64,000 nucleotides of DNA from Bdellovibrionales bacterium (GTDB taxonomy: Bacteria; Bdellovibrionota; Bdellovibrionia; Bdellovibrionales; JAUICD01), in the NCBI GenBank assembly GCA_965262715.1, contig OZ253553.1:960001-1024000 (forward strand). The letters are read 5' to 3'. The notes under the pieces were generated by a model. That model searched no databases, was not told the DNA's origin, and was given only the letters and a program-made list of their open reading frames with translations. Positions 30,857-60,562 of this stretch are shown here, piece after piece (positions within the stretch are counted from its first letter, which is position 1; the number at the start of each line of letters is the position of its first letter). The translations under genes and the position numbers were made by a program.

Positions 30857-31172
30857 ACCATTTACCCTATTATCTTATCATAAAAAATCTTCTAAACTAT
30901 CTTTATATAACCAAAGAAATCTAAGGAGTATAACTTATTCTAAAACTTTTTAAATTGGTATTTATAAATTCGATAGTTTTAATTTTAACTTTAAACTCTT
31001 CTATTCTTTTAGGTTTTGGGATGAGTGATCAAGAATTAGATCAAGCTATTCGCAAATACTTATCAATTTACAATAACTACCAGATAGATGAAAACATAGA
31101 TGAAAATATTGTTAATAATTTTACCAGATTAATTAGAGATCATTCTAATATGTTTAACTACCTTGCAGAACT

Positions 31173-33125
31173 CCTGAGTTTGACACTTAATTTGAATTTT
31201 CGTGATATTTTTTTCAAGGAATGTTGTATTTATAGTCATTAGCGGTTATTGTGTTTGTATTTTGGTCAAAAAGTGTAGTGTACTTATTTATCATACACTA
31301 CGCGTCATATACCTTATTTTCTTTTATTTTTTATATTTTTCTTGTAATGTATTTTTATGTTCATAAGGTCTACAAGAAATCCGAGAGGAGACATATATTA
31401 TCATCTTGTTGAGAGCTACAGATTAGGTTCTCAAGTGAAGCAAAGGATTCTAATGTCTTTAGGTAAAGCCGCGGATAAGGAAGTTAACTTGAAGAAGCTT
31501 CTAGAAGTATTATCTAAAGAGTTAGAGATAATTCCTGCTAGTAAGTTATTAAAAGAGATTGATGTAAAAGACACTTTTATTTTAGGTCCTTTGCTTATAA
31601 TAGATACTATTTTTAAACAATTAAATCTCTATAGATTATTAACAGATTTAAAACAGAAGCATCGTAAAGTGCAATTTGATTTTGTTAAGATTATTTTTAC
31701 ATTGGTTATAAGTCGTTTTGTAGAGCCTTGTTCTAAGCTTAAAGTATTTTCACACTGGCAGAAGTTATTTTATCCTGATTTTTTAGAAGGGGAGCTTCAT
31801 CTTCAAGACATTTATCGTTCTTTAGATATTCTAAGTAAGCATAAAGAAGATATAGAGAAGACTCTTTATATGCGAGGTAAGTCTCAATTAAGTTTTTTCA
31901 ATGAGTGTGATGTTATTTTGTATGATTTAACGACATTGAGATTTGAGAGTACCCGTGAGGATTTAGATAATCTTCGAAGGTTTGGTTATAGCAAAGAGAA
32001 GAGGAGTGATTGCACACAAGTGGTATTTGGACTTTTAGTAGATACAGAAGGTATGCCCTTAGGCTTTGATGTTTATCCTGGGAATACATTTGAAGGTAAA
32101 ACAATACCTTCAGTTATGACGAAGCTAAAAAAGAAGTTTAAGATCAGAAGATTTATATTAGTAGGAGATAGAGGTTTATTTTCTAATGAGAATCTCCAAT
32201 CATTAAAAGCAAAGGGAGATGAATTTATAGTAGGATTAAAGCTAGGTTTATTAAAGGATCGTCATGCAGAGATATACAATTTAAAGAATTTTAAATTTAT
32301 AAATGAAGATTTAGCTATATACGAGACAAGCTATAATAATGATCGTTGTATAATTACCTGGTCGAGAAAGAGAGCAGAACGAGATAAGAAAGTAAGAGAA
32401 GATATTCTATCTAAGATAGAAGCTCAATTATCAAAGAAGTCCATAAGCACAAGATCTTTTTTATCTAATAGTAATTATAAGAAGTATATTGTTCATCCTA
32501 AGAGTAAAGGCAAGCCTACTTTAAATAAGTCAGCTATAGAACAATCAGAGAGGACAGATGGTTTTTTTGGAATAATTACAAACACAGATTTAAGCTCTGA
32601 AGAGATTATAATGAACTATAAGCAATTATGGAAGGTAGAGAATTCATTTAGAGAGTTGAAGGGTACATTAAAGACACGTCCTATGTTCCACTGGACAGAT
32701 AAGAGGATATTAGGTCATTTAGTTGTGTGTTTTTTATCTTACTTATGTGAGGCTTATTTTGCAAAGAAGTTACATCAAAGAAACATCACATTAAAAGATA
32801 AAGCGATCACAGACAAGAGAATAAAGTCAAGGCCATTGAGTGTAGCGGAAGCTATGTCAAAGCTGAAAGAAGTACGAGCTATACCTGTCAGATATAAAAA
32901 CAAAACTATTTGGATAAGAACAGATATTTATGGCAATAACGCTGATGTATTTAAAGCTATAGGAGTTAAGATCCCATCAAAACAACTTAAAATTGAATCT
33001 ACTTAAACCTACAAACAATCTCTTAAATCTCTACCACAAAATCAAAATGTAGTGGTACAAAATCACACATCCACTGTAACTAACTAAAATAACTCAACTT
33101 TATTTTCGCAACTGTCAAACTCAGG
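31173..33125 (+). mobile_element. IS1634-family insertion sequence
   Basis: Terminal IRs cctgagtttgaca / tgtcaaactcagg; flanking 107-bp direct repeats 31066-31172 and 33126-33232. Confidence 0.93.
31357..33006 (+). CDS. IS1634-family DDE transposase
   Basis: YYHLVESYR, LYDLTTLRFES, FGYSKEKRSD, VGDRG, YKQLWKVENSFRELK, RPMFHWT. Confidence 0.93.
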   Translation: MFIRSTRNPRGDIYYHLVESYRLGSQVKQRILMSLGKAADKEVNLKKLLEVLSKELEIIPASKLLKEIDVKDTFILGPLLIIDTIFKQLNLYRLLTDLKQKHRKVQFDFVKIIFTLVISRFVEPCSKLKVFSHWQKLFYPDFLEGELHLQDIYRSLDILSKHKEDIEKTLYMRGKSQLSFFNECDVILYDLTTLRFESTREDLDNLRRFGYSKEKRSDCTQVVFGLLVDTEGMPLGFDVYPGNTFEGKTIPSVMTKLKKKFKIRRFILVGDRGLFSNENLQSLKAKGDEFIVGLKLGLLKDRHAEIYNLKNFKFINEDLAIYETSYNNDRCIITWSRKRAERDKKVREDILSKIEAQLSKKSISTRSFLSNSNYKKYIVHPKSKGKPTLNKSAIEQSERTDGFFGIITNTDLSSEEIIMNYKQLWKVENSFRELKGTLKTRPMFHWTDKRILGHLVVCFLSYLCEAYFAKKLHQRNITLKDKAITDKRIKSRPLSVAEAMSKLKEVRAIPVRYKNKTIWIRTDIYGNNADVFKAIGVKIPSKQLKIEST

Positions 33126-34055
33126 ATTTACAATAACTACCAGATAGATGAAAACATAGATGAAAATATTGTTAATAATTTTACCAGATTAATTAGAGAT
33201 CATTCTAATATGTTTAACTACCTTGCAGAACTTGAAACAGACGATGAGTTTTTATCTTATTTAGAAAAATATTCAGACTTAAAACTTAAGTTTACCGGTC
33301 ATCCTATAGATCCAGATGTTAAGGTGACATTTATTACGAATTCTTCCTCTTACTATAATAAAATTATTCAAGGAAAACCTGCTGTTTGTGATCCATTCAC
33401 TCGCATTATTTTTTTTGACCCTCATTTTTGGAGATCACAGGAAGGTTATGAGAGAACAAGGGAAAGAGTTTTATTCCATGAACTAGGACACTGTGACCTC
33501 TATAGAAATCACAGTTCATTAGAAGACTCTTCTTTTATGCGTGTTAGAGGTCTTGAGACATTGCTAGCTTCTCATCCTACAAATTTAGATGATATTTTTA
33601 ACAATTTATATGAAGAGCTTTTTGCTGAGCGAAATACTATACATATTAAATGCTATACTATAGAGATAGATGAAGATGGTTTAGAAAGAAGAATTACTCC
33701 AAATCATTGTATGCCAAACCAAAACAGAGCTTTCCAAGATTTTAAAGATATAAGTGTTCCAATTTTTCAGCAATTAATTGGGCTATTCTTTCTAAGAAAC
33801 TATAACAGTCGTTCTCTATAGAAATAGAAAAAATTTAGATGCCAAAATGGAAAGATGGCAGATTTATTCCATTAATTCCCAACACTATAAAATTATATAT
33901 ATCGATTACATAAAAAATAAGAAGTCTTGCAAGTAGCTCTTAAAAACCCTTCTGCTCCTAATTCTCCTATAAGATAATCAGCAATATCTATATGACTTTG
34001 ACTACTTGCATTTAAATATTTACATGCTGTGTTAAAAAAGAGGAATTTACCCTAC

Positions 34056-43942: not shown

Positions 43943-44814
43943 GTTTGAGCTATTTTGTAACCTAATCTGTTTCACTAAAAATGCATCTAATTCTGTTTCA
44001 CTAAAAATGAATCCGCCTCTGGCGGTTTTCTGGCAATAAGCCCGACAGTCTTTTGCTGTCGGCAAATAGCTTATTGCCTAGAAAACATATTCATTTTGAG
44101 TAAAGGAGATACTCTTCTTTATTTAACAAAATGTTAAGGAAACTATTTATCATTTTTTATCGCTATGTTTGAGCTATTTTGTAACCTAATCTGTTTCACT
44201 AAAAATGCATCTAATTCTGTTTCACTAAAAATGAATCCGCCTCTGGCGGTTTTCTGGCAATAAGCCCGACAGTCTTTTGCTGTCGGCAAATAGCTTATTG
44301 CCTAGAAAACATATTCATTTTGAGTAAAGGAGATACTCTTCTTTATTTAACAAAATGTTAAGGAAACTATTTATCATTTTTTATCGCTATGTTTGAGCTA
44401 TTTTGTAACCTAATCTGTTTCACTAAAAATGCATCTGACCTCTGGTCACTTTCTGACAGTAAGCCTGAAGATTCACATCTTCAGCAAATAGCTTACTGCC
44501 TAGAAAGCTTGATGCATTTTTACTAGAAGAATATCCTCGTTAATTAACAAAATGTTAAGGAAATCGTTTATTATTTTTTTTATTCACTATGTTTGAGCTA
44601 TTTTGTATCCTAGTTTGTTTCACTAAAAATGCATCTAGCCTCTAGCTACTTTTTGGCAGTAAACCTGAAGATTCACATCTTCAGCAAATAGCTTACTGCC
44701 TAGAAAGCTTGATGCATTTTTACTAGAAGAATATCCTCGTTAATTAACAAAATGTTAAGGAAACTGTTTATCATTTTTTATCGCTATGTTTGAGCTATTT
44801 TGTACCCTAGTTTG
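43943..44814 (+). repeat. Tandem array of four family-A structured elements separated by five ~25-bp direct repeats
   Basis: gtttgagctattttgta(a/t/c)ccta starts at 43943, 44167, 44391, 44591, 44788 (periods 224, 224, 200, 197). Confidence 0.92.
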
Positions 44815-45269
44815 CAGGATATTCTAAAGTCACCAAAAGTCAATGGCTGACATTTTAAACGGTTTGTAAATTCTAAATTCGGCTTAGTCCAGCAGTGATA
44901 GACTCTGAAATCATTAAATGTATTGGTAGATATGATATCTCTGCAAGCTCTTACGGCGTAATTGCTTCTTAGTAACTTACAGTCTTCCTCTCTTTTGCAA
45001 ATACCTAAAAAAGACTCGATAACTCCACCTGTCCTTAAAATTTCCTCATGATTTATATCGTAGTTTTTGTAAATAATCATTTGAAAAGCTTCTGTATCTT
45101 CCTTTAAGCGCATGGATAGGCGAAAGTATTCTATCTGTCTAAACTGCTCTAAGTTAAAATGATCGATAAAGGTGTAGATAACTCCAACACCTACAATCAA
45201 AACCCAGCAATAAACCCAATATTTATATTTTCTAAGTATCCTTAAATACTTTATAAATGGCTTCATCAT
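44784..45269 (-). CDS. Pilin-associated membrane-anchored protein, copy 1
   Basis: One N-terminal TM helix, Cys-rich; nearly identical to 53718-54206; directly downstream of the pilin. Confidence 0.8.
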   Translation of the reverse strand: MMKPFIKYLRILRKYKYWVYCWVLIVGVGVIYTFIDHFNLEQFRQIEYFRLSMRLKEDTEAFQMIIYKNYDINHEEILRTGGVIESFLGICKREEDCKLLRSNYAVRACRDIISTNTFNDFRVYHCWTKPNLEFTNRLKCQPLTFGDFRISCKLGYKIAQT

Positions 45270-45364: not shown

Positions 45365-46138
45365 TTATTGAGTTCCATCTTCTTGGTTAAGCATTGTTTT
45401 ATTTTGATCCATAAGCCATACATCAATACCGTCACCGCCTATGTTCCCTATCATCCCTATACTAAAACTCACACTGTTTCTAGCTATATTCCTAAGAAGA
45501 ACCCCTCCATTAACAAGGGTACAAGTTGTAACAGGAGAAGTAGTACTAGCATTACAACTTGCACCCCCACTAGCTAAAGTACATGTACCGCTTCCTGAAG
45601 CAACAAGACAAGAGTTTAAACTACCAAAAGTAAGTGGTGTTGAGCCATTTACTTCATAATCTGCCCCTGCGGCTACTATACAACTACCTATATTACTTCC
45701 ATCTTGAAAAGATGAATGATGGGCTCCAGCACATAAGCTAAAAGTATCTATATCTTGCTCATCTGCTGCTAAAGGACCATTATAACCAGTTAATCTAGTT
45801 GTTTCACTATTAACAATATTACCTACTTCTATTGCAGAAAACCCTGCTAAATAATTTATGACTCCATCAGGAGAAAAGCCAATTTGACGTATATTAGTGG
45901 ACCCAAAGCCCCACTCAGATATAAAGGCTTTTTCAGCAGTAAAGATCCCTGACGCTATTATTTTTGCTTCTGACTGCCTTGCTTTTCTTTGGAAACGTTG
46001 ATAGTTCGGGATGGCAATGGCTGCTAAAATACCAATAATTGCAACAACCACCATTAATTCAACTAATGAAAAACCGCCTTGTCTACCAAAACGACTTCTC
46101 TTATACATCTTATATATTTTAAATCTTGATAATCCCAT
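45365..46138 (-). CDS. Type IV pilin, copy 1
   Basis: Prepilin site [34 protein letters not shown], several Cys; SD AAGGAG. Confidence 0.92.
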
Positions 46139-47118
46139 TTTTTATCTCCTTTATTATTATTCTTAATAACAATCATGCTTTGTTTTTTTCATCATTCATT
46201 AAGGTTGAAAAGCTTAAGATGGATGTTCAAAAAGTAATGAAATGCTGAGGTACTAAACATGTAAGCACTTATAACTTTAAGTCCAGTTAAAACTAGCCTT
46301 TACACTACTAATGGCTGAATTTTGACTGTGACTTATATATAAAAGTTACAGTATCAAATAGTTAAAATCACTCAACTATTTAACCTTCATTTCGCAAGCA
46401 AAAAAACTAGTCCTTTGTACCTTCCTAGTTTCGTCTTGGTTTAATGAAGATTTATCTTTCTACATATACGCACCCCCTGCTTTCTCTTTATGATTTTGTA
46501 AGAAGCATATTGTCATCTTACCTACTTATTACATGCATATATTTTAAATTGTTACTTATATATTATGCTATGCAGTTATGACTATACCTTCTGACACTAG
46601 TATATCGTAATTTACAAACAATAACTTAATATTTTTACTATAAAAATTAAATAATATAACACATTGAAATTACTTAATTAATTTAAAATTAATTTTACAA
46701 TATTTTATTATTATACACGGTATAATAGTGAAGATGTTCTAAATTGATAAATAACTTGTTTTCAACTGACACATTTTTATTTTTTCTAATACAAGAAAGG
46801 TTTCAGAAAAAAGAAGAGCTTAAAAATTGTTCTATTCTACTACATATATATACTGCATTTGACGCCAGCTAAGTATAAGGATTCATTACTATAATAGAAG
46901 TATAATTAATAAGTTCTTAATTAAGGATATCAAGCTTATTTAGAATTATCTGGAGCTTCACTGATAGAAGTTTATATTTATTTCATTTTCTAATAAAAAA
47001 TTAAAAAGAATTAAAGATAACAAATTCTTATTCTTTTTTTATTTTACTCTATTGACTTATTTAGAGAGAGCATATAGAGGAGTAAAGACAAATAATAAAC
47101 AAATATTGGAGTCTATTA

Positions 47119-51038: not shown

Positions 51039-52232
51039 ATGAATAAATCGTACAAAGTTGTTGCTGTATTAATTATAATAGTTATTTTTTTACCTCTACA
51101 AATATTGGGTTTTTCATTAAACGATCATGAAAGGTTCAGCAAAATTGCAATTAAAGAGTTCTTCAAGTGTGTACAACCCGAAATGTTACACAATTCAAAT
51201 AGGTTAGCTTTAAATAGGTTTACTAATATTATTGTTGATGGGAACTTGCAAGAAGACATACACTATTTGATCAAAATGATGCAATATTCTCATTTTTACA
51301 ATCCATATTTTTATATAAATTTCAGATGGTCATATATTATTGATAGATGCCCTTCTAATTATCGTATTTACCATCTTGAACAAATTTTAGACGCTTATTT
51401 GAAAAGAGACAGACTTGAGATATCTGATTTGTTTTGGGATGACCAATGTCAACCTTCTTCAATATTAACAATGGCAGGATTTACAGAGTCACTTCAAGTA
51501 CCTCTTCTAGACAACCTTCATGTTTTAGATTTTAGATTGTTTTATACAAATAATCGAACTCAAATACCTGAAACATACAGAACTTATTTTAATCAATTAG
51601 GGCATGCCATTCATCATTTACAAGATATGTCTTCACCCACACATGTTGTACCTATATCACATCCTCTTCCTTTTGACTCTCCTACTTCTCATTGGGAGAC
51701 CACCTTTAAGGATGGATTCGAACATAATGATAATAGAATATCTATACTTAATAGGATAGATGCAGAATTTGATGATCAACCTTTAAACGAAATGTGTGCT
51801 TTTAAAGAGTCCACTCCAGAAACATTATTTCATATATTAGATCAATCTGCTAGAAATACATTAAATGCATTGGATCAAGAGTTATCTATTCATGTTTCAA
51901 AATCAGATAACAGATCAGGAAATAGAAGAACTGTTGTGCCAATGACAGTCACTTGGGGAAATTGGTATGACAAGCTTTCAGCATCTAGTACCAATCATAT
52001 TGGGCAATATGGCATCTATCAGGATGCCTTCGAATTGACTGAGTTTCAAATAAGTGACGACCCTCGCACACCTCAAAATGAAGAAGGTTGGATCGTTTAC
52101 GTCAACAAAAGATTTTATGATGACTTTAGATATCAGCAATATAGACAAGTTATTGAAGATACCAAAAAAGCACTGTACTATGCCTACTTGAAAATATTCA
52201 GATTACAACAAGATTCAAATGAAAATAATTAA
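51039..52232 (+). CDS. Secreted zinc-dependent phospholipase C / S1-P1-like protein
   Basis: Signal peptide then FSLNDHE; SHFYNP; LGHAIHHLQDMSSPTHV; DGFE. Confidence 0.65.
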   Translation: MNKSYKVVAVLIIIVIFLPLQILGFSLNDHERFSKIAIKEFFKCVQPEMLHNSNRLALNRFTNIIVDGNLQEDIHYLIKMMQYSHFYNPYFYINFRWSYIIDRCPSNYRIYHLEQILDAYLKRDRLEISDLFWDDQCQPSSILTMAGFTESLQVPLLDNLHVLDFRLFYTNNRTQIPETYRTYFNQLGHAIHHLQDMSSPTHVVPISHPLPFDSPTSHWETTFKDGFEHNDNRISILNRIDAEFDDQPLNEMCAFKESTPETLFHILDQSARNTLNALDQELSIHVSKSDNRSGNRRTVVPMTVTWGNWYDKLSASSTNHIGQYGIYQDAFELTEFQISDDPRTPQNEEGWIVYVNKRFYDDFRYQQYRQVIEDTKKALYYAYLKIFRLQQDSNENN

Positions 52233-52671
52233 GTTATTTTTTCTTCTATAAGTTCAATAAAAAATATCTTTCTGTAGATGCCTTTAAAATACCATTTTTA
52301 CATCTTATTCACTTTACAAATTCAACTTTAGTTTAGCAAAAACTACATAAGTCTTAAGCAATTAAGACCAGGTCAGGTAGTATAAAAATCTAGTTTTTTC
52401 CAGAAAGGGTGACAGCAAAATAGTTAAGTAATTTTAGCTACTTGATACTGTAACTTTTATATATAAGTCACAGTCAAAACTCAGCCATTGGTAGTGTAAG
52501 TGACTGAATCTAACTAAAAGACTTGAAGTTATAAGTGTCTACATGTTTAGTACCTCAGCATTTCATTACTTTTTGAACATCCATCTTAAGCTTTTCAACC
52601 TTAATGAATGATGAAAAAAACAAAGCATGATTGTTATTAAGAATAATAATAAAGGAGATAAAAAATGAGAT

Positions 52672-52839
52672 CTAGTTTCCCTCAAAATAAACCAGCCTCT
52701 AGAGGCGAGCCTCTAGCTGTTTTTGGGCAGTCAGCCTGAAGATTCACATCTTCAAGAAAATGCTGACTACCTCAAAAATCCGTTTATTTTAAGGAAGGAG
52801 ATACTCCTCATTTTTTAACACCATGTTAAGGAAATTATT
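52672..52839 (+). repeat. Family-A element inserted at the pilin 2 start, flanked by a ~25-bp duplication
   Basis: taataaaggagataaaaaatgagat (52647-52671) and taataaaaggagatagaaaatgagat (52840-52865); absent at the paralogous pilin 1 start. Confidence 0.88.
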
Positions 52840-52858
52840 TAATAAAAGGAGATAGAAA

Positions 52859-53620
52859 ATGAGATTATCAAGACTTAAAATATATAAGATGTATAGGAGA
52901 AGTCGTTTTGGTAGACAAGGCGGTTTTTCATTAGTTGAATTAATGGTGGTTGTTGCGATCATTGGTATCTTAGCAGCCATTGCCATTCCGAACTATCAAC
53001 GTTTCCAAAGAAAAGCAAGACAGAGTGAATCAAAGATACTAGCATCAGGCCTTTACAATGCTGAAAAGATGTTTATATCAGAGCATGGATTTGGTTCTAC
53101 AAATTTGCACCAAATTGGCTTTACTCCAGATGGTACTGTTAACTATATGGTTGGTTTTGCAGCAGTTGAAGGAGGTACAAAAATCAATCAATCCACTAGG
53201 CAAGTTGGTTTTCATGGCCCTTTACCTGAAAAGGCTGGTGGTGATCTTACTACATTTCATGTATGTGGAGGAGGTATTACTGGCACTCTTTCTTCTGACG
53301 CACCCGATTGTACAGTTGCAACGGGAGCAGATAAAGACACGAGTGGTGTTCCTTTAACTAACTTCCCAACTGGTATAGCTGATTTTCAAGCTTGTGCAAA
53401 TGCTAGCAACACAGGAAATTGTAGTCCTGCACCTGCATGTAATAATGTTGGATCTGGAGCTAACTGTAGTGTAGTAAGTGCTGCTGCTATGGATAATACA
53501 GGTAGAAACAATGTAAGTTTTTCAATTGGAGCTATAGCAGCAATAGGCGGCAACAAAGATGATGTCTGGGTTATGAGCCAGGATAAAACTTTAAAAAATG
53601 TTCAAGATGGAACTCAATAA
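52859..53620 (+). CDS. Type IV pilin, copy 2
   Basis: Same prepilin leader and N-terminal helix as copy 1, divergent middle, same QDGTQ end. Confidence 0.92.
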   Translation: MRLSRLKIYKMYRRSRFGRQGGFSLVELMVVVAIIGILAAIAIPNYQRFQRKARQSESKILASGLYNAEKMFISEHGFGSTNLHQIGFTPDGTVNYMVGFAAVEGGTKINQSTRQVGFHGPLPEKAGGDLTTFHVCGGGITGTLSSDAPDCTVATGADKDTSGVPLTNFPTGIADFQACANASNTGNCSPAPACNNVGSGANCSVVSAAAMDNTGRNNVSFSIGAIAAIGGNKDDVWVMSQDKTLKNVQDGTQ

Positions 53621-53669
53621 TTTTATCTTAAGAACTTTGTAATCTTGTTTTCAAAGAATTCATTTTTAT

Positions 53670-53701
53670 AAAGCCATCTAGGTAGATACTTAGATGGCTT
53701 T
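53670..53701 (+). terminator. Hairpin terminator/attenuator after pilin 2
   Basis: aaagccatcta-N10-tagatggcttt then tatttt. Confidence 0.7.
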
Positions 53702-53717
53702 TATTTTATGAGGTTTT

Positions 53718-54206
53718 ATGATGAAGCCATTTATAAAGTATTTAAGGATACTTAGAAAATATAAATATTGGGTTTATTGCTGGGTTTTGATTGTAGGTGT
53801 TGGAGTTGTCTACACTTTTATTGATCATTTTAATTTAGAACAACTTAGGCAAAAGGAATACTTTCGCCTATCCATGCACTTAAAGAAAGATACAGAAGCT
53901 TTTCAAATGATTATTTATAAAAACTACGATATAAATCATGAGGAAATTTTAAGGACAGGTGGAGCTATTGAGTCTTTTTTAGGTATTTGCAAAGGAGAGG
54001 AAGACTGTAAGTTACTAAGGAGCAATTACGCTGTAAGAGCTTGCAGAGATATCATATCTAGCAACACATTTGATACATTCAGAGTCTATCACTGTTGGAC
54101 AAAGCCAAATTTAGAGTTTACTAACCGTTTGAAATGCCAGCCATTAACTTTTGGTGATTTTAAAAGCTCTTGCAAACTAGGATACAAAATAGCTATGCAT
54201 ACATAA
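53718..54206 (+). CDS. Pilin-associated membrane-anchored protein, copy 2
   Basis: Near-identical to 44784-45269; ends CKLGYKIAMHT. Confidence 0.8.
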   Translation: MMKPFIKYLRILRKYKYWVYCWVLIVGVGVVYTFIDHFNLEQLRQKEYFRLSMHLKKDTEAFQMIIYKNYDINHEEILRTGGAIESFLGICKGEEDCKLLRSNYAVRACRDIISSNTFDTFRVYHCWTKPNLEFTNRLKCQPLTFGDFKSSCKLGYKIAMHT

Positions 54207-54607: not shown

Positions 54608-56014
54608 GAGGTTGTCCCATAGATCGGTGAAATTTTCTTATAGAAATTAGAAGAAAGTAGAGCTCCCGGCTATCCTAAGTGGTCTAGCCGTTGTTTACTG
54701 TTTTTATTTTATCAGGAAATAGATAACAGAAAGGAGCTATTATGAAGAGTAGTAAGAATGGTTATTCAATTCAAGTTTTATCATCTGAGTCAAATGAGAT
54801 TCGAGAGATCCTAGAGCATCGCATGAGATCAATGGTTATTAATATGATCCATGATTTCTTTGAGGATGAGTTATTATCACTGTGTGGTAAGCGTCATGGT
54901 CGTGGTCGTGATACAAGATATTACAGAGCGGGTAGTGATTCTGGGAGTGTTCTTGCACAAGGTCAAAGGCTTCAGGTGAGGAAGCCTAGGGTGAAGGAGA
55001 AGGGAGGTTCTGATATTAAGCTGCGGTCTTATTCAGTGCTTCAAAAGTATGACATACTTTGTGATAAAGTTTTGAGTCATGCTATGAGAGGGGTATCTTG
55101 TCGTAATTACAATGAACTTCTTGATGATATTGTAGGAGGAACGGGTCTTTCTAAGAGTACAGTGAGCAGAGTCTTTAATAAGTCATCTAGGAAGTTTCTT
55201 GAATCTTTAAATGGTCGTGATCTGAGTAAGGATAAGTTTTCATCAATTATGATTGATGGTGTTGTTTTTGGATCAAGGACAGTGGTTGTAGCTCTTGGCA
55301 TCACAGTTGAAGGTAAGAAGTTAGTTCTGGGTCTTAGAGAGGGTCATACAGAGAACTGGGAAGTTTGCAAGGACTTATTAGAGAGTTTAATAGCAAGAGG
55401 TCTTTGTTCAGATAAGCCTTACCTTTTTGTAATTGATGGTAGCAGATCTTTAAGGACAGCTATTAATAGAGTTTTTGGTAAGAGAGCAGTAGTTCAACGC
55501 TGTATTCACCACAAGGAGAGGAATGTTTTAAGTTATTTACCTCAGGAACGTCATTTAGAGTTTAAGCGTCGCTGGAAGATGGTGCATGGTTTTAATGATT
55601 ATGATTCTTCTCAGAGAGAATACAATAAGTTACTGAGTTGGTTAAGCAGGATTAATTATGCAGCATTGGCTTCACTTAAGGAAGCAAAGGAGGAGACACT
55701 GACAGTTATCAAGTTGAAGGTATCTCCACTGCTAAGGAGAACCTTATCTTCTACAAATCCTATTGAGTCTGCCTTTTCTATTGTAAGAGATAAAGTCAGC
55801 AGGGTTAAGAACTGGAGAAGTTCTTCAGATCAGGTCATGAGATGGGCTGCTGTTTCTTTAGTTGAAGCTGAAAAAAAGTTTAGAGCTATTAAAGGGTATA
55901 AAGATTTAAATACAATGGAAGAAAATTTAAACCTATTGACTAACAATAGAAACAGGCGTAGCAAAACATCAAGCTCTGCTTAACTTCAATTTCACCGAAA
56001 CGTGGGACATCCTC
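54608..56014 (+). mobile_element. IS256-family insertion sequence
   Basis: IRs gaggttgtcccatagatcggtgaaatt / aatttcaccgaaacgtgggacatcctc; 8-bp target duplication ctttattt (54600-54607, 56015-56022). Confidence 0.93.
54742..55983 (+). CDS. IS256-family transposase
   Basis: GVSCRNY, LSKSTVSR, IMIDG, VALGI...GKKLVLG, FVIDG, QRCIHHKERNV, STNPIES. Confidence 0.93.
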   Translation: MKSSKNGYSIQVLSSESNEIREILEHRMRSMVINMIHDFFEDELLSLCGKRHGRGRDTRYYRAGSDSGSVLAQGQRLQVRKPRVKEKGGSDIKLRSYSVLQKYDILCDKVLSHAMRGVSCRNYNELLDDIVGGTGLSKSTVSRVFNKSSRKFLESLNGRDLSKDKFSSIMIDGVVFGSRTVVVALGITVEGKKLVLGLREGHTENWEVCKDLLESLIARGLCSDKPYLFVIDGSRSLRTAINRVFGKRAVVQRCIHHKERNVLSYLPQERHLEFKRRWKMVHGFNDYDSSQREYNKLLSWLSRINYAALASLKEAKEETLTVIKLKVSPLLRRTLSSTNPIESAFSIVRDKVSRVKNWRSSSDQVMRWAAVSLVEAEKKFRAIKGYKDLNTMEENLNLLTNNRNRRSKTSSSA

Positions 56015-58051: not shown

Positions 58052-58217
58052 CGATTTCCTTAACATTTTATTAAATAATGAGGATAACCTTCTACTAAAA
58101 ATGCATCAGGCTTTCTAGGCAGTAAGCTACTTGCTGAAGATGTGAATCTTCAGGCTTACTGCCAGAAAGTAGCCAGAGGCTTACCTCGAGAGGCTAGATG
58201 CATTTTTAGTGAAACAG
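58052..58217 (-). repeat. Family-A element directly after the Rpn copy 2 stop
   Basis: Reverse complement ctgtttcactaaaaatgcatctagcc...ggcagtaagcctgaagattcacatcttcag...gcttactgcctagaaag...gatgcatttttagtag; begins 3-4 bp after TAA. Confidence 0.88.
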
Positions 58218-59847: not shown

Positions 59848-60562
59848 ATGAAATCACAAAACACTGATAACATCTTAACAAGTTTTTTCTTAACACTGCT
59901 TGGCGGCAGTATTGTCAGAACTATCTTTTTATGTGTAAATCACTCTGCTTTAGATATAAGTATCTATAAGACATTCCTGATAGGTGTGATGATAGATAGC
60001 TTAGTGCTTTCTATATTATTTCTACCTACTTTATTTTTTCTAATTTTACGCATGCGTCTTTTTAAATATCTTAAGTTTATATCGATGCTTCAAAGATTTT
60101 ATCTTTTTATAGTTATCTCTTTATTTTTATTAAGCTCTTTCGTAGATATCTTTATCTTTAAAATTTATCATCATAGGTTAACCCTACTTCTGATTGAACA
60201 AGCTTTACATATCTTTTCAATATTATTCAATGCACTTCAATCACAGTTTAGCTATGAAATATTAATTCTTCCACTTTTGTTAATTATTTCATATATTTGC
60301 ACCTGTTGGCATGTCCCTATTGAGAAAATTCATCGATTCTTCTTAAAGAAAATTTACAGTAAAGCTTATAAAAAACTGCCTTTAAAGCAGCAATTACAAA
60401 CACTTCTAATTCCTTATTTGTTGGTATTTATTTTTACAAGTTTTATTTATGTTCCTATTTTTTCTTCAAAATCATTTGATCAAATCATTACCTCACAGCA
60501 AAAAAAATATGTCCTGCAATCAGCCTCTAAAAATTCCTTTTTTTATCTCTATCAAGAAACAT
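59848..60562 (+). pseudogene. Second LTA-synthase-family gene, truncated by IS3
   Basis: Paralogous to 54323-57780 up to ASKNSFFYLYQE; the catalytic domain does not resume after the IS. Confidence 0.85.

Follow-up and report, generated by a model that had tools for sequence, protein, structure and literature searches.

A structured repeat inserted with target duplication at a pilin start in a Bdellovibrionales bacterium, and its probable one-ended mode of spread

The published model that we regard as closest to the element described here is the amplification of BIMEs by TnpA-REP in E. coli, in which, according to part of PMC3333891, synthesis starts from a nick in a rolling-circle-like manner and a further unit is added by a second cleavage. 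In Pseudomonas, clusters of REPINs (RAYT) repeat flanking DNA, as stated in part of PMC3116915, and parts of both sources describe REPs that persist in strains without the enzyme. The element shares several traits with REP/BIME and REPIN as these partial sources give them: it occurs as hundreds of intergenic hairpin repeats, its tandem arrays take in flanking DNA, and it persists in genomes in which no enzyme for it was found. It differs from REP/REPIN, as portrayed in the same parts, in its unit, an asymmetric branched fold of 145-160 nt, whereas a REPIN consists of two inverted REPs in one hairpin. In addition, no RAYT or TnpA-REP gene flanked by element copies was found, the junctions at several targets do not show, by eye, the C^T of the REP/REPIN cleavage rule (although the left-flank consensus is C-T-G), and the junctions comprise duplications of up to ~79 nt as well as losses. 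Long, variable target duplications are made by IS1634 and IS1549 (PMC2266710, in part), and IS1634-like elements reside in the genome analysed here (G000). However, IS1634 and IS1549 are DDE elements that move autonomously, have terminal inverted repeats that match each other and duplicate longer stretches, whereas the element has no ORF, unequal ends, and junctions that are often blunt or deleting. With prokaryotic MITEs and the Rickettsia palindromic elements, as far as part of PMC10969869 describes them, it has in common a length of ~150 nt, non-autonomy, high copy number, palindromic character and an IS-rich host. In contrast to MITEs, it has neither a real terminal inverted repeat nor a fixed duplication, and while the Rickettsia elements sit in-frame, its copies are intergenic: called ORFs contain 12 of 492 matches, mostly in ORFs apparently created by the repeat itself.

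Our main reading, to which we assign a probability of roughly 0.58, is that a non-coding, hairpin-folded mobile repeat entered the start of pilin 2, doubled 25 bases there and spreads by one-ended join-and-copy. Judged by the above comparison, the element is likely to be REP/REPIN-like and one-ended. The window, i.e. the whole stretch of 64,000 nt that was analysed, corresponds to G000:960001-1024000, and G000 is a single contig of 2.94 Mb with 33.6% GC. Its features are as follows.

52647..52671, plus strand: left copy of the duplicated target (SD, ATG and 4 nt), 25 nt
52672..52839, plus strand: inserted structured repeat, 168 nt, fold assessed by z score, missing from the orthologous contig of run X6
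52681..52793, plus strand: branched core with covariation, made up of a basal stem, a small hairpin, a long stem bearing a bulged T, and an apical hairpin
52699..52716, plus strand: terminator-like hairpin followed by a T-run, within the insert, consensus match only
52796..52808, plus strand: second terminator-like hairpin followed by a T-run, within the insert, consensus match only
52665..52739, plus strand: 24-codon uORF from the first SD-ATG (52665), out of frame with the pilin ATG (52859)
52840..52865, plus strand: right copy of the duplicated target, bearing the SD and ATG of pilin 2, 26 nt
52859..53620, plus strand: pilin 2, type IV pilin-like, intact, 253 aa, PF07963 and TIGR02532 above cut-off
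46132..46156, minus strand: pilin 1 start, the paralogous site without an insert
45365..46138, minus strand: pilin 1, type IV pilin-like, 257 aa, 57% identical to pilin 2
58055..58214, minus strand: full-length copy of the family, immediately following an Rpn-family gene
43997..44770, plus strand: tandem array of four family copies at the 3' end of the gene that follows pilin 1, with a host stretch of ~25 nt at its borders and between its units

The insert at pilin 2 consists of the family core (52676-52834) plus 4 junction nucleotides at the left and 5 at the right. The right copy of the target is distinguished from the left by one additional A and one A/G difference. This flank pair aligns at a score of 19.5, and a score of at least 16 was reached by only 9 of 2970 control flank pairs. 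The doubling of a ~25-bp stretch around a 168-bp element, as claimed in the preliminary description, is thus borne out by copies of 25 and 26 nt that go beyond the control pairs. The leader of pilin 1 carries a single copy of the target (at 46138, minus strand) and no insert, in agreement with its earlier reading as the empty site. The leaders of pilin 1 and pilin 2 align over ~270 nt, the final ~130 nt being nearly identical, and by their letters they look gene-converted. Checking of the translation showed that the first SD-ATG indeed opens a peptide of 24 codons, MRSSFPQNKPASRGEPLAVFGQSA*, and that pilin 2 starts in a different frame at the second SD-ATG. As to the supposed lack of terminal repeats, a weak inverted match of ~9 nt does exist at the termini (TTTC(A/C)C at the left, GGAAA at the right), but its pairing shows no covariation and is not above shuffles; the claim has to be amended for the match and stands as regards the pairing.

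Four runs (X1, X5, X6 and X8) were compared over 52200-53800. A contig of 3,225 nt from run X6 spans 52200-52650 with 13 differences in 451 nt and then resumes at 52845; the sequence omitted is exactly 194 nt, which corresponds to the insert plus one target copy. Upstream of the joint, the match takes in DNA peculiar to the pilin-2 locus, without a counterpart at pilin 1. Runs X1 and X5 carry the filled allele; X5 comes from a different study than X1 and showed 0 differences over 52200-52748 and 52750-52906. Run X8, with a skip of 245 nt and a mere 41 letters on the short side, was left out of the evidence. Because the X6 orthologue is empty and a second study (X5) holds the filled allele, the pilin-2 insert is confirmed as a real, strain-polymorphic insertion with target duplication. 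The view that the element inserted with a long duplication and left the gene intact is therefore upheld, and an ancestral presence at both pilins is contradicted by the empty X6 orthologue of pilin 2.

A ribosome-binding site carried in by the donor, rather than a target duplication, was considered as well, and the two differences of the right copy, which recur in another pilin leader holding the element, are a point in its favour. However, 10 letters at the X6 joint fit both sides, and therefore the X6 allele appears to follow the right copy's G. The empty allele would then already have borne this G, and the A of the left copy would have changed later, possibly by conversion from pilin 1. On this ground, a donor-carried site seems improbable. 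The same contig of run X6 has 417 unlike letters in place of the variable part of pilin 2 (window 53160-53582), with both flanks conserved, which suggests a swap of this region by allelic exchange.

Survival of the gene, as predicted from the letters, follows simply from the copying of the SD, by which the start signal is complete. In predicted local folds, the second SD of pilin 2 is unpaired at 0.68, as compared with 0.69 for the SD of pilin 1, and the ATG at 0.45 in pilin 2 versus 0.93 in pilin 1. Terminator-like hairpins in the region number 3, against 0.7 expected from shuffles. It is plausible that the uORF and the two terminator-like hairpins of the insert may dampen pilin-2 expression.

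A family profile built from 44 near-full copies gave 492 matches in G000 (481 after removal of overlaps; 249 full length). The commonest unit lengths are 145 or 159-161 nt, and the copies form 240 clusters, 114 of which are multi-copy. Among 41 genomes searched, the element was held by 3, namely G000, G001 of the same genus, and G004; a pattern scan of the genome collection returned 59 loci in two records, and a pattern scan of metagenomes for the element returned 0 matches. An array in G004 (L101:8972-9653) has, by eye, spacer and flanks in common with the G000 array at 2842754-2843517, and the genera assigned to the two genomes differ. The shared array may reflect transfer or contamination of the bin, and G004 may not be independent. 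Within the window, the array at 43997-44770 replaces the 3' end of the gene at 44784-45269 (ending KIAQT*), and the paralogue behind pilin 2, at 53718-54206 (ending KIAMHT*), is empty, which makes a second filled/empty pair.

The insert folds more stably than shuffled sequences (z of -5.0 as RNA and -6.0 as DNA). In 72 diverged copies, Watson-Crick pairs make up 85-97% of the four core helices (basal stem, small hairpin, long stem and apical hairpin), as against shuffle maxima of 65-79%, compensatory changes occur at 27 of 41 pairs, and the bulged T is retained in 70 copies, although the covariation counts overstate independence because these copies are related. Neither the end-to-end pairing nor either of the two hairpins on the right was above shuffles in the same 72 copies. 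The family unit is an asymmetric branched fold with a three-way junction, and its conserved right tail is unpaired. Since the covariation is strong, the fold appears to be under selection. An Rfam covariance-model search of the insert gave no match at E <= 1, and a literature search, which covered main texts and did not use the organism name, found no account of this element.

In G000, a copy lies within 150 nt of 12 of the 35 tRNA/tmRNA genes, compared with 6% of random windows, and within 10 nt of 7 of them (four unassigned ARAGORN calls were excluded from the set), with the left end facing the tRNA in 6. In these cases the left end stands 1-9 nt from the tRNA end (G000:C1 1205288, 1992160, 2050836, 2649859, 858165 and 2498146), past the CCA on the same strand in 4 and past the complement of the 5' end in 2. 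Four tandem tRNA-like calls with unassigned anticodon are found directly before tRNA-Trp at G000:C1:2198524-2198863. The element also lies within a CRISPR repeat at G000:C1:476744, 482122 and 490461, around one cas operon, with 24-25 nt duplicated; its left end abuts the foot of the repeat hairpin, and the intact repeats of the array provide the empty state. These three sites are probably one insertion copied together with array remnants.

Among the pilin-like genes recognised by motif, 3 of 16 are preceded on the same strand by a copy whose end lies 24-40 nt from the ATG, versus 10 of 2,188 ORFs with crudely called starts. The three look like independent insertions because both copies and junctions differ. 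Besides pilin 2, two G000 pilin leaders have independent copies, at G000:C1:1843424-1843584 and 2058383-2058563, one of which swaps 17 nt for 23 nt. At the pilin loci of G001 (L034, L038), two of the four examined have an opposite-strand copy just upstream, and matches to the pilin number 22 in G000 and 41 in G001. Of the 19 four-helix-bundle genes, 12 have a copy within 400 nt, as have 7 of the 23 Rpn-type genes, compared with 372 of 2,188 ORFs. Matches to the four-helix-bundle family (PF05635) number 19 in G000, 14 in G001 and 19 in G004, with 0 in G002, 0 in G003 and 1 in G005. As partners of the element, these genes were rejected: copies lie inside and disrupt them, and we therefore read them as targets. 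Several of the 19 loci in G000:C1 (e.g. 157307, 818418, 2622812) are disrupted at the same codon region.

It may be asked at this point whether dedicated mobility is needed at all, as host recombination and replication slippage between repeats or paralogous loci might have spread the copies, with the pilin duplication as a one-off repair. The copies are mosaic, the nearest relative of the pilin-2 copy scoring only ~0.85, and many stand in tandem arrays or other repeat families. No enzyme was found, and the gene-converted look of the two pilin leaders fits as well. However, the same left end occurs in targets that are not related to each other, namely a CRISPR repeat, tRNA ends, pilin leaders and four-helix-bundle genes, the copies in the three pilin leaders are unlike one another in both sequence and junction, and the strong covariation implies a fold under selection. 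We consider spread by host processes alone distinctly unlikely.

To return to the mobile repeat, its junctions were compared across the family. Isolated full copies number 70, and 55 of them have distinct flanks. A long flanking direct repeat (score of at least 14) was present at 7 of these 55, against 15 of 2970 mismatched flank pairs (p 6e-8), and was missing at 48; at the loci of the second genome it was found in 0 of 9 isolated copies. Flanking duplications, which the preliminary description proposed to measure at all copies, are thus enriched over the control in these 55, but a long duplication is not the family rule. As a hallmark of the family, it was rejected in view of the 48 copies and of paralogue pairs with blunt or deleting junctions. 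Clean duplications were seen at pilin 2 (25 nt), at the CRISPR repeat (24-25 nt) and at a 3' fragment of tRNA-Pro (30 nt). Two of the 7 flanking repeats stand 15-32 nt away from the element ends, and two others possibly derive from former tandem units.

When empty paralogues were searched for, 43 filled/empty rows were obtained, many of which repeat one event. Net target gains were +76/79, +62/63, +25, +25 and +15; other rows showed a change near zero or a loss (about 0 (+1, -1 to -7), -2, -3 and -7) or larger losses (-14, -17, -19, -23 and -16 to -30), the negative values being possibly overestimated where the tail is similar to the bases lost. From the 43 rows, 13 events were picked by eye, omitting further rows of an event already included, the rows for tRNA-Arg (with another tRNA as the empty partner) and a poor match with 26 and 30 extra bases. 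In these hand-chosen events, the median number of additional junction bases was 2 at the left versus 13 at the right (p 0.006), old copies being liable to have eroded junctions. Arrays could be scored in 26 of the 114 multi-copy clusters: 7 repeat the right flank only, 3 the left only, 4 both and 12 neither. The corresponding numbers in the second genome were 3, 0, 0 and 11 (n=14). The bias of the arrays to the right (10 right-only versus 3 left-only in both genomes) is weak and has the same direction as that of the junctions. In one insertion family in four-helix-bundle genes, the 14 nt of the right tail repeat the left flank in inverted orientation, a product expected of fold-back synthesis. 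The left flanks have a consensus C-T-G (58%, 79% and 63%), and by eye the CT is absent at the junction in several targets (pilin, CRISPR, tRNA ends). A hairpin preference at left flanks is not general (1 of 55 at z < -2).

A fixed staggered cut could not yield the duplications, blunt joins and losses seen with one and the same element. The left junction is tight and the right one loose and tailed, which argues for one-ended joining followed by template-switch synthesis. According to this scheme, whose intermediate may be ssDNA or RNA, some enzyme would recognise the folded single strand, and the fixed left end would be joined to a nick in the target. The right end, with its tail of a few to ~25 nt, would then be resolved by template switching of a polymerase at a short match. 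A match upstream of the nick would lead to duplication of the target (25 nt at pilin 2, up to ~79 nt elsewhere), and a match downstream of the nick to the loss of target bases. At pilin 2 the switch point would have lain just upstream of the SD, so that the complete start was retained and the gene stayed intact. The preliminary description had preferred a staggered-nick or target-primed route to ordinary MITE cut-and-paste. Its dismissal of the latter stands; a fixed staggered nick does not hold in view of junctions from +79 to -30, and a nick-primed route fits one end, with its tight left junction, but not both.

The one-ended logic is common to target-primed reverse transcription, which differs from join-and-copy in naming a reverse transcriptase. 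In such a SINE-like route, a minus-strand transcript would be primed with its 3' end (the left junction) at the nick, and a template jump would take place at the second junction, with variable duplication or loss as the outcome. In favour of this route are the tight left and loose right junction and the junctions at tRNA ends. On the plus strand, A-C mismatches outnumber G-T mismatches (23 versus 10 pair positions, p 0.035), which favours the minus strand, whereas the inverted tail favours the plus strand, so that the strand hints conflict. Reverse transcriptase matches (PF00078) number 3 in G000, but there is none in G001 (90% complete) or G004. One of the three, L017 (G000:C1:2650522-2652294), is a 590-aa protein in which a retron St85-type effector-like domain is fused to a reverse transcriptase; it lies 440 nt from a copy that comes after tRNA-Asp. 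The RNA of a retron is expected directly upstream of its reverse transcriptase, and no family match is present there. Furthermore, one-sided truncation is not in excess (26 left-only versus 21 right-only among 128 isolated hits), and the insert has no Rfam match. Target-primed reverse transcription of an RNA intermediate is, in our judgement, unlikely.

Integration by Cas1-Cas2 or a casposase-like enzyme would involve a fixed staggered cut of ~25 nt. Two clean duplications are of 25 nt, one of them inside a CRISPR repeat beside a cas1 gene, and Cas1 is present in G000 and G001. But the duplication length varies, and at the CRISPR site, which lies at the end of the array distal to cas1, the duplication takes in 24 of the 28 bases of the repeat. 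Moreover, G003 has Cas1 without the element and G004 the element without Cas1. With no fixed duplication, no real terminal inverted repeats and the co-occurrence with Cas1 broken, a casposon or Cas1-integrated element was rejected, and we hold it to be highly improbable.

Domain searches of the element-holding genomes did not find a cognate enzyme for the one-ended route. Y1/HUH (PF01797) has no match in G001 or G004, and in G000 there is one IS200 TnpA, ~2 kb from the nearest copy. A RAYT flanked by repeats was not found, and the IS200 TnpA is absent from the 23 ORFs flanked on both sides (read by eye). IS110 gave no match in G000 or G001, Rep_trans gave none, and Y2_Tnp gave no match in a search whose control was also silent. 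Relaxase occurs only in G002, the TnpB domain is confined to two ORFs of ~1,350 aa, and GIY-YIG occurs once per genome. By these sequence matches, neither Cas1 nor any of the last six families tracks the element. All three holders have the families PF01609 (also in G002), PF04754 (also in G003), PF12784 and PF05635, but co-occurrence across five or six related genomes is no test of partnership. An autonomous parent with a gene between element halves was rejected, as there is no such gene in 5 split cases.

PF01609, found in G000, G001 and G004 and absent from G003 and G005, leads to the possibility that the element is a MITE mobilised in trans by the DDE transposases of resident IS1634-like elements, whose target duplications are long and differ in length. 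In G000, 4 of the 12 copies listed of the largest IS1634-like family carry target duplications of ~95-246 nt, and repeats of 8-514 bp have been reported for IS1549/IS1634 (PMC2266710, in part). However, the IS1634-like ends are CCTGA(G/C)TT on both sides, and the element ends differ from these and from each other. The end-to-end pairing of the element lacks covariation, many insertions are blunt or target-losing, no transposase gene lies between the split halves (5 cases), and the conserved internal fold would be left unexplained. The class of DDE-mobilised MITEs was rejected, with ends unlike those of the resident multi-copy IS families, a long repeat at 7 of 55 copies, and net changes of +79 to -30 in paralogue pairs; such transport in trans seems very unlikely to us.

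Other mobile DNA is present in the window. An IS1634-like element lies at G000:C1:991169-993126 (window 31169-33126). A Mutator-family (PF00872) IS at 54608-56014, with an 8-nt duplication, interrupts a sulfatase-domain gene, and an IS3-type element (rve domain) near 60560 interrupts a paralogue of that gene. What we take to be sigma-54-like promoter motifs in repeated DNA stand at window 40786 and 42801 (plus strand) and 59367 and 48876 (minus strand); three of them precede Rpn-type genes.

The entry of small palindromic repeats (REP, REPIN, RPE) into new sites is still poorly shown. The pilin-2 locus offers a matched filled/empty allele between strains, and the genome adds more than 12 filled/empty pairs with a clear left-right asymmetry. 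Together they make one-ended join-and-copy testable and exclude a simple MITE reading. A bolder and rather doubtful extension is that the family represents a new class of small mobile element without a recognisable transposase, HUH enzyme or reverse transcriptase. Its three-way-junction fold would recruit a host or unannotated nuclease (candidate Rpn/PD-(D/E)XK) that joins one end at a nick, and repair synthesis would finish the process; at the pilin leaders, in which it has landed repeatedly, doubled start signals and a uORF could then tune which of the ~20 pilin paralogues is expressed. Copying of the ribosome-binding site also shows how a repeat can come to occupy the beginning of a gene and leave that gene intact.
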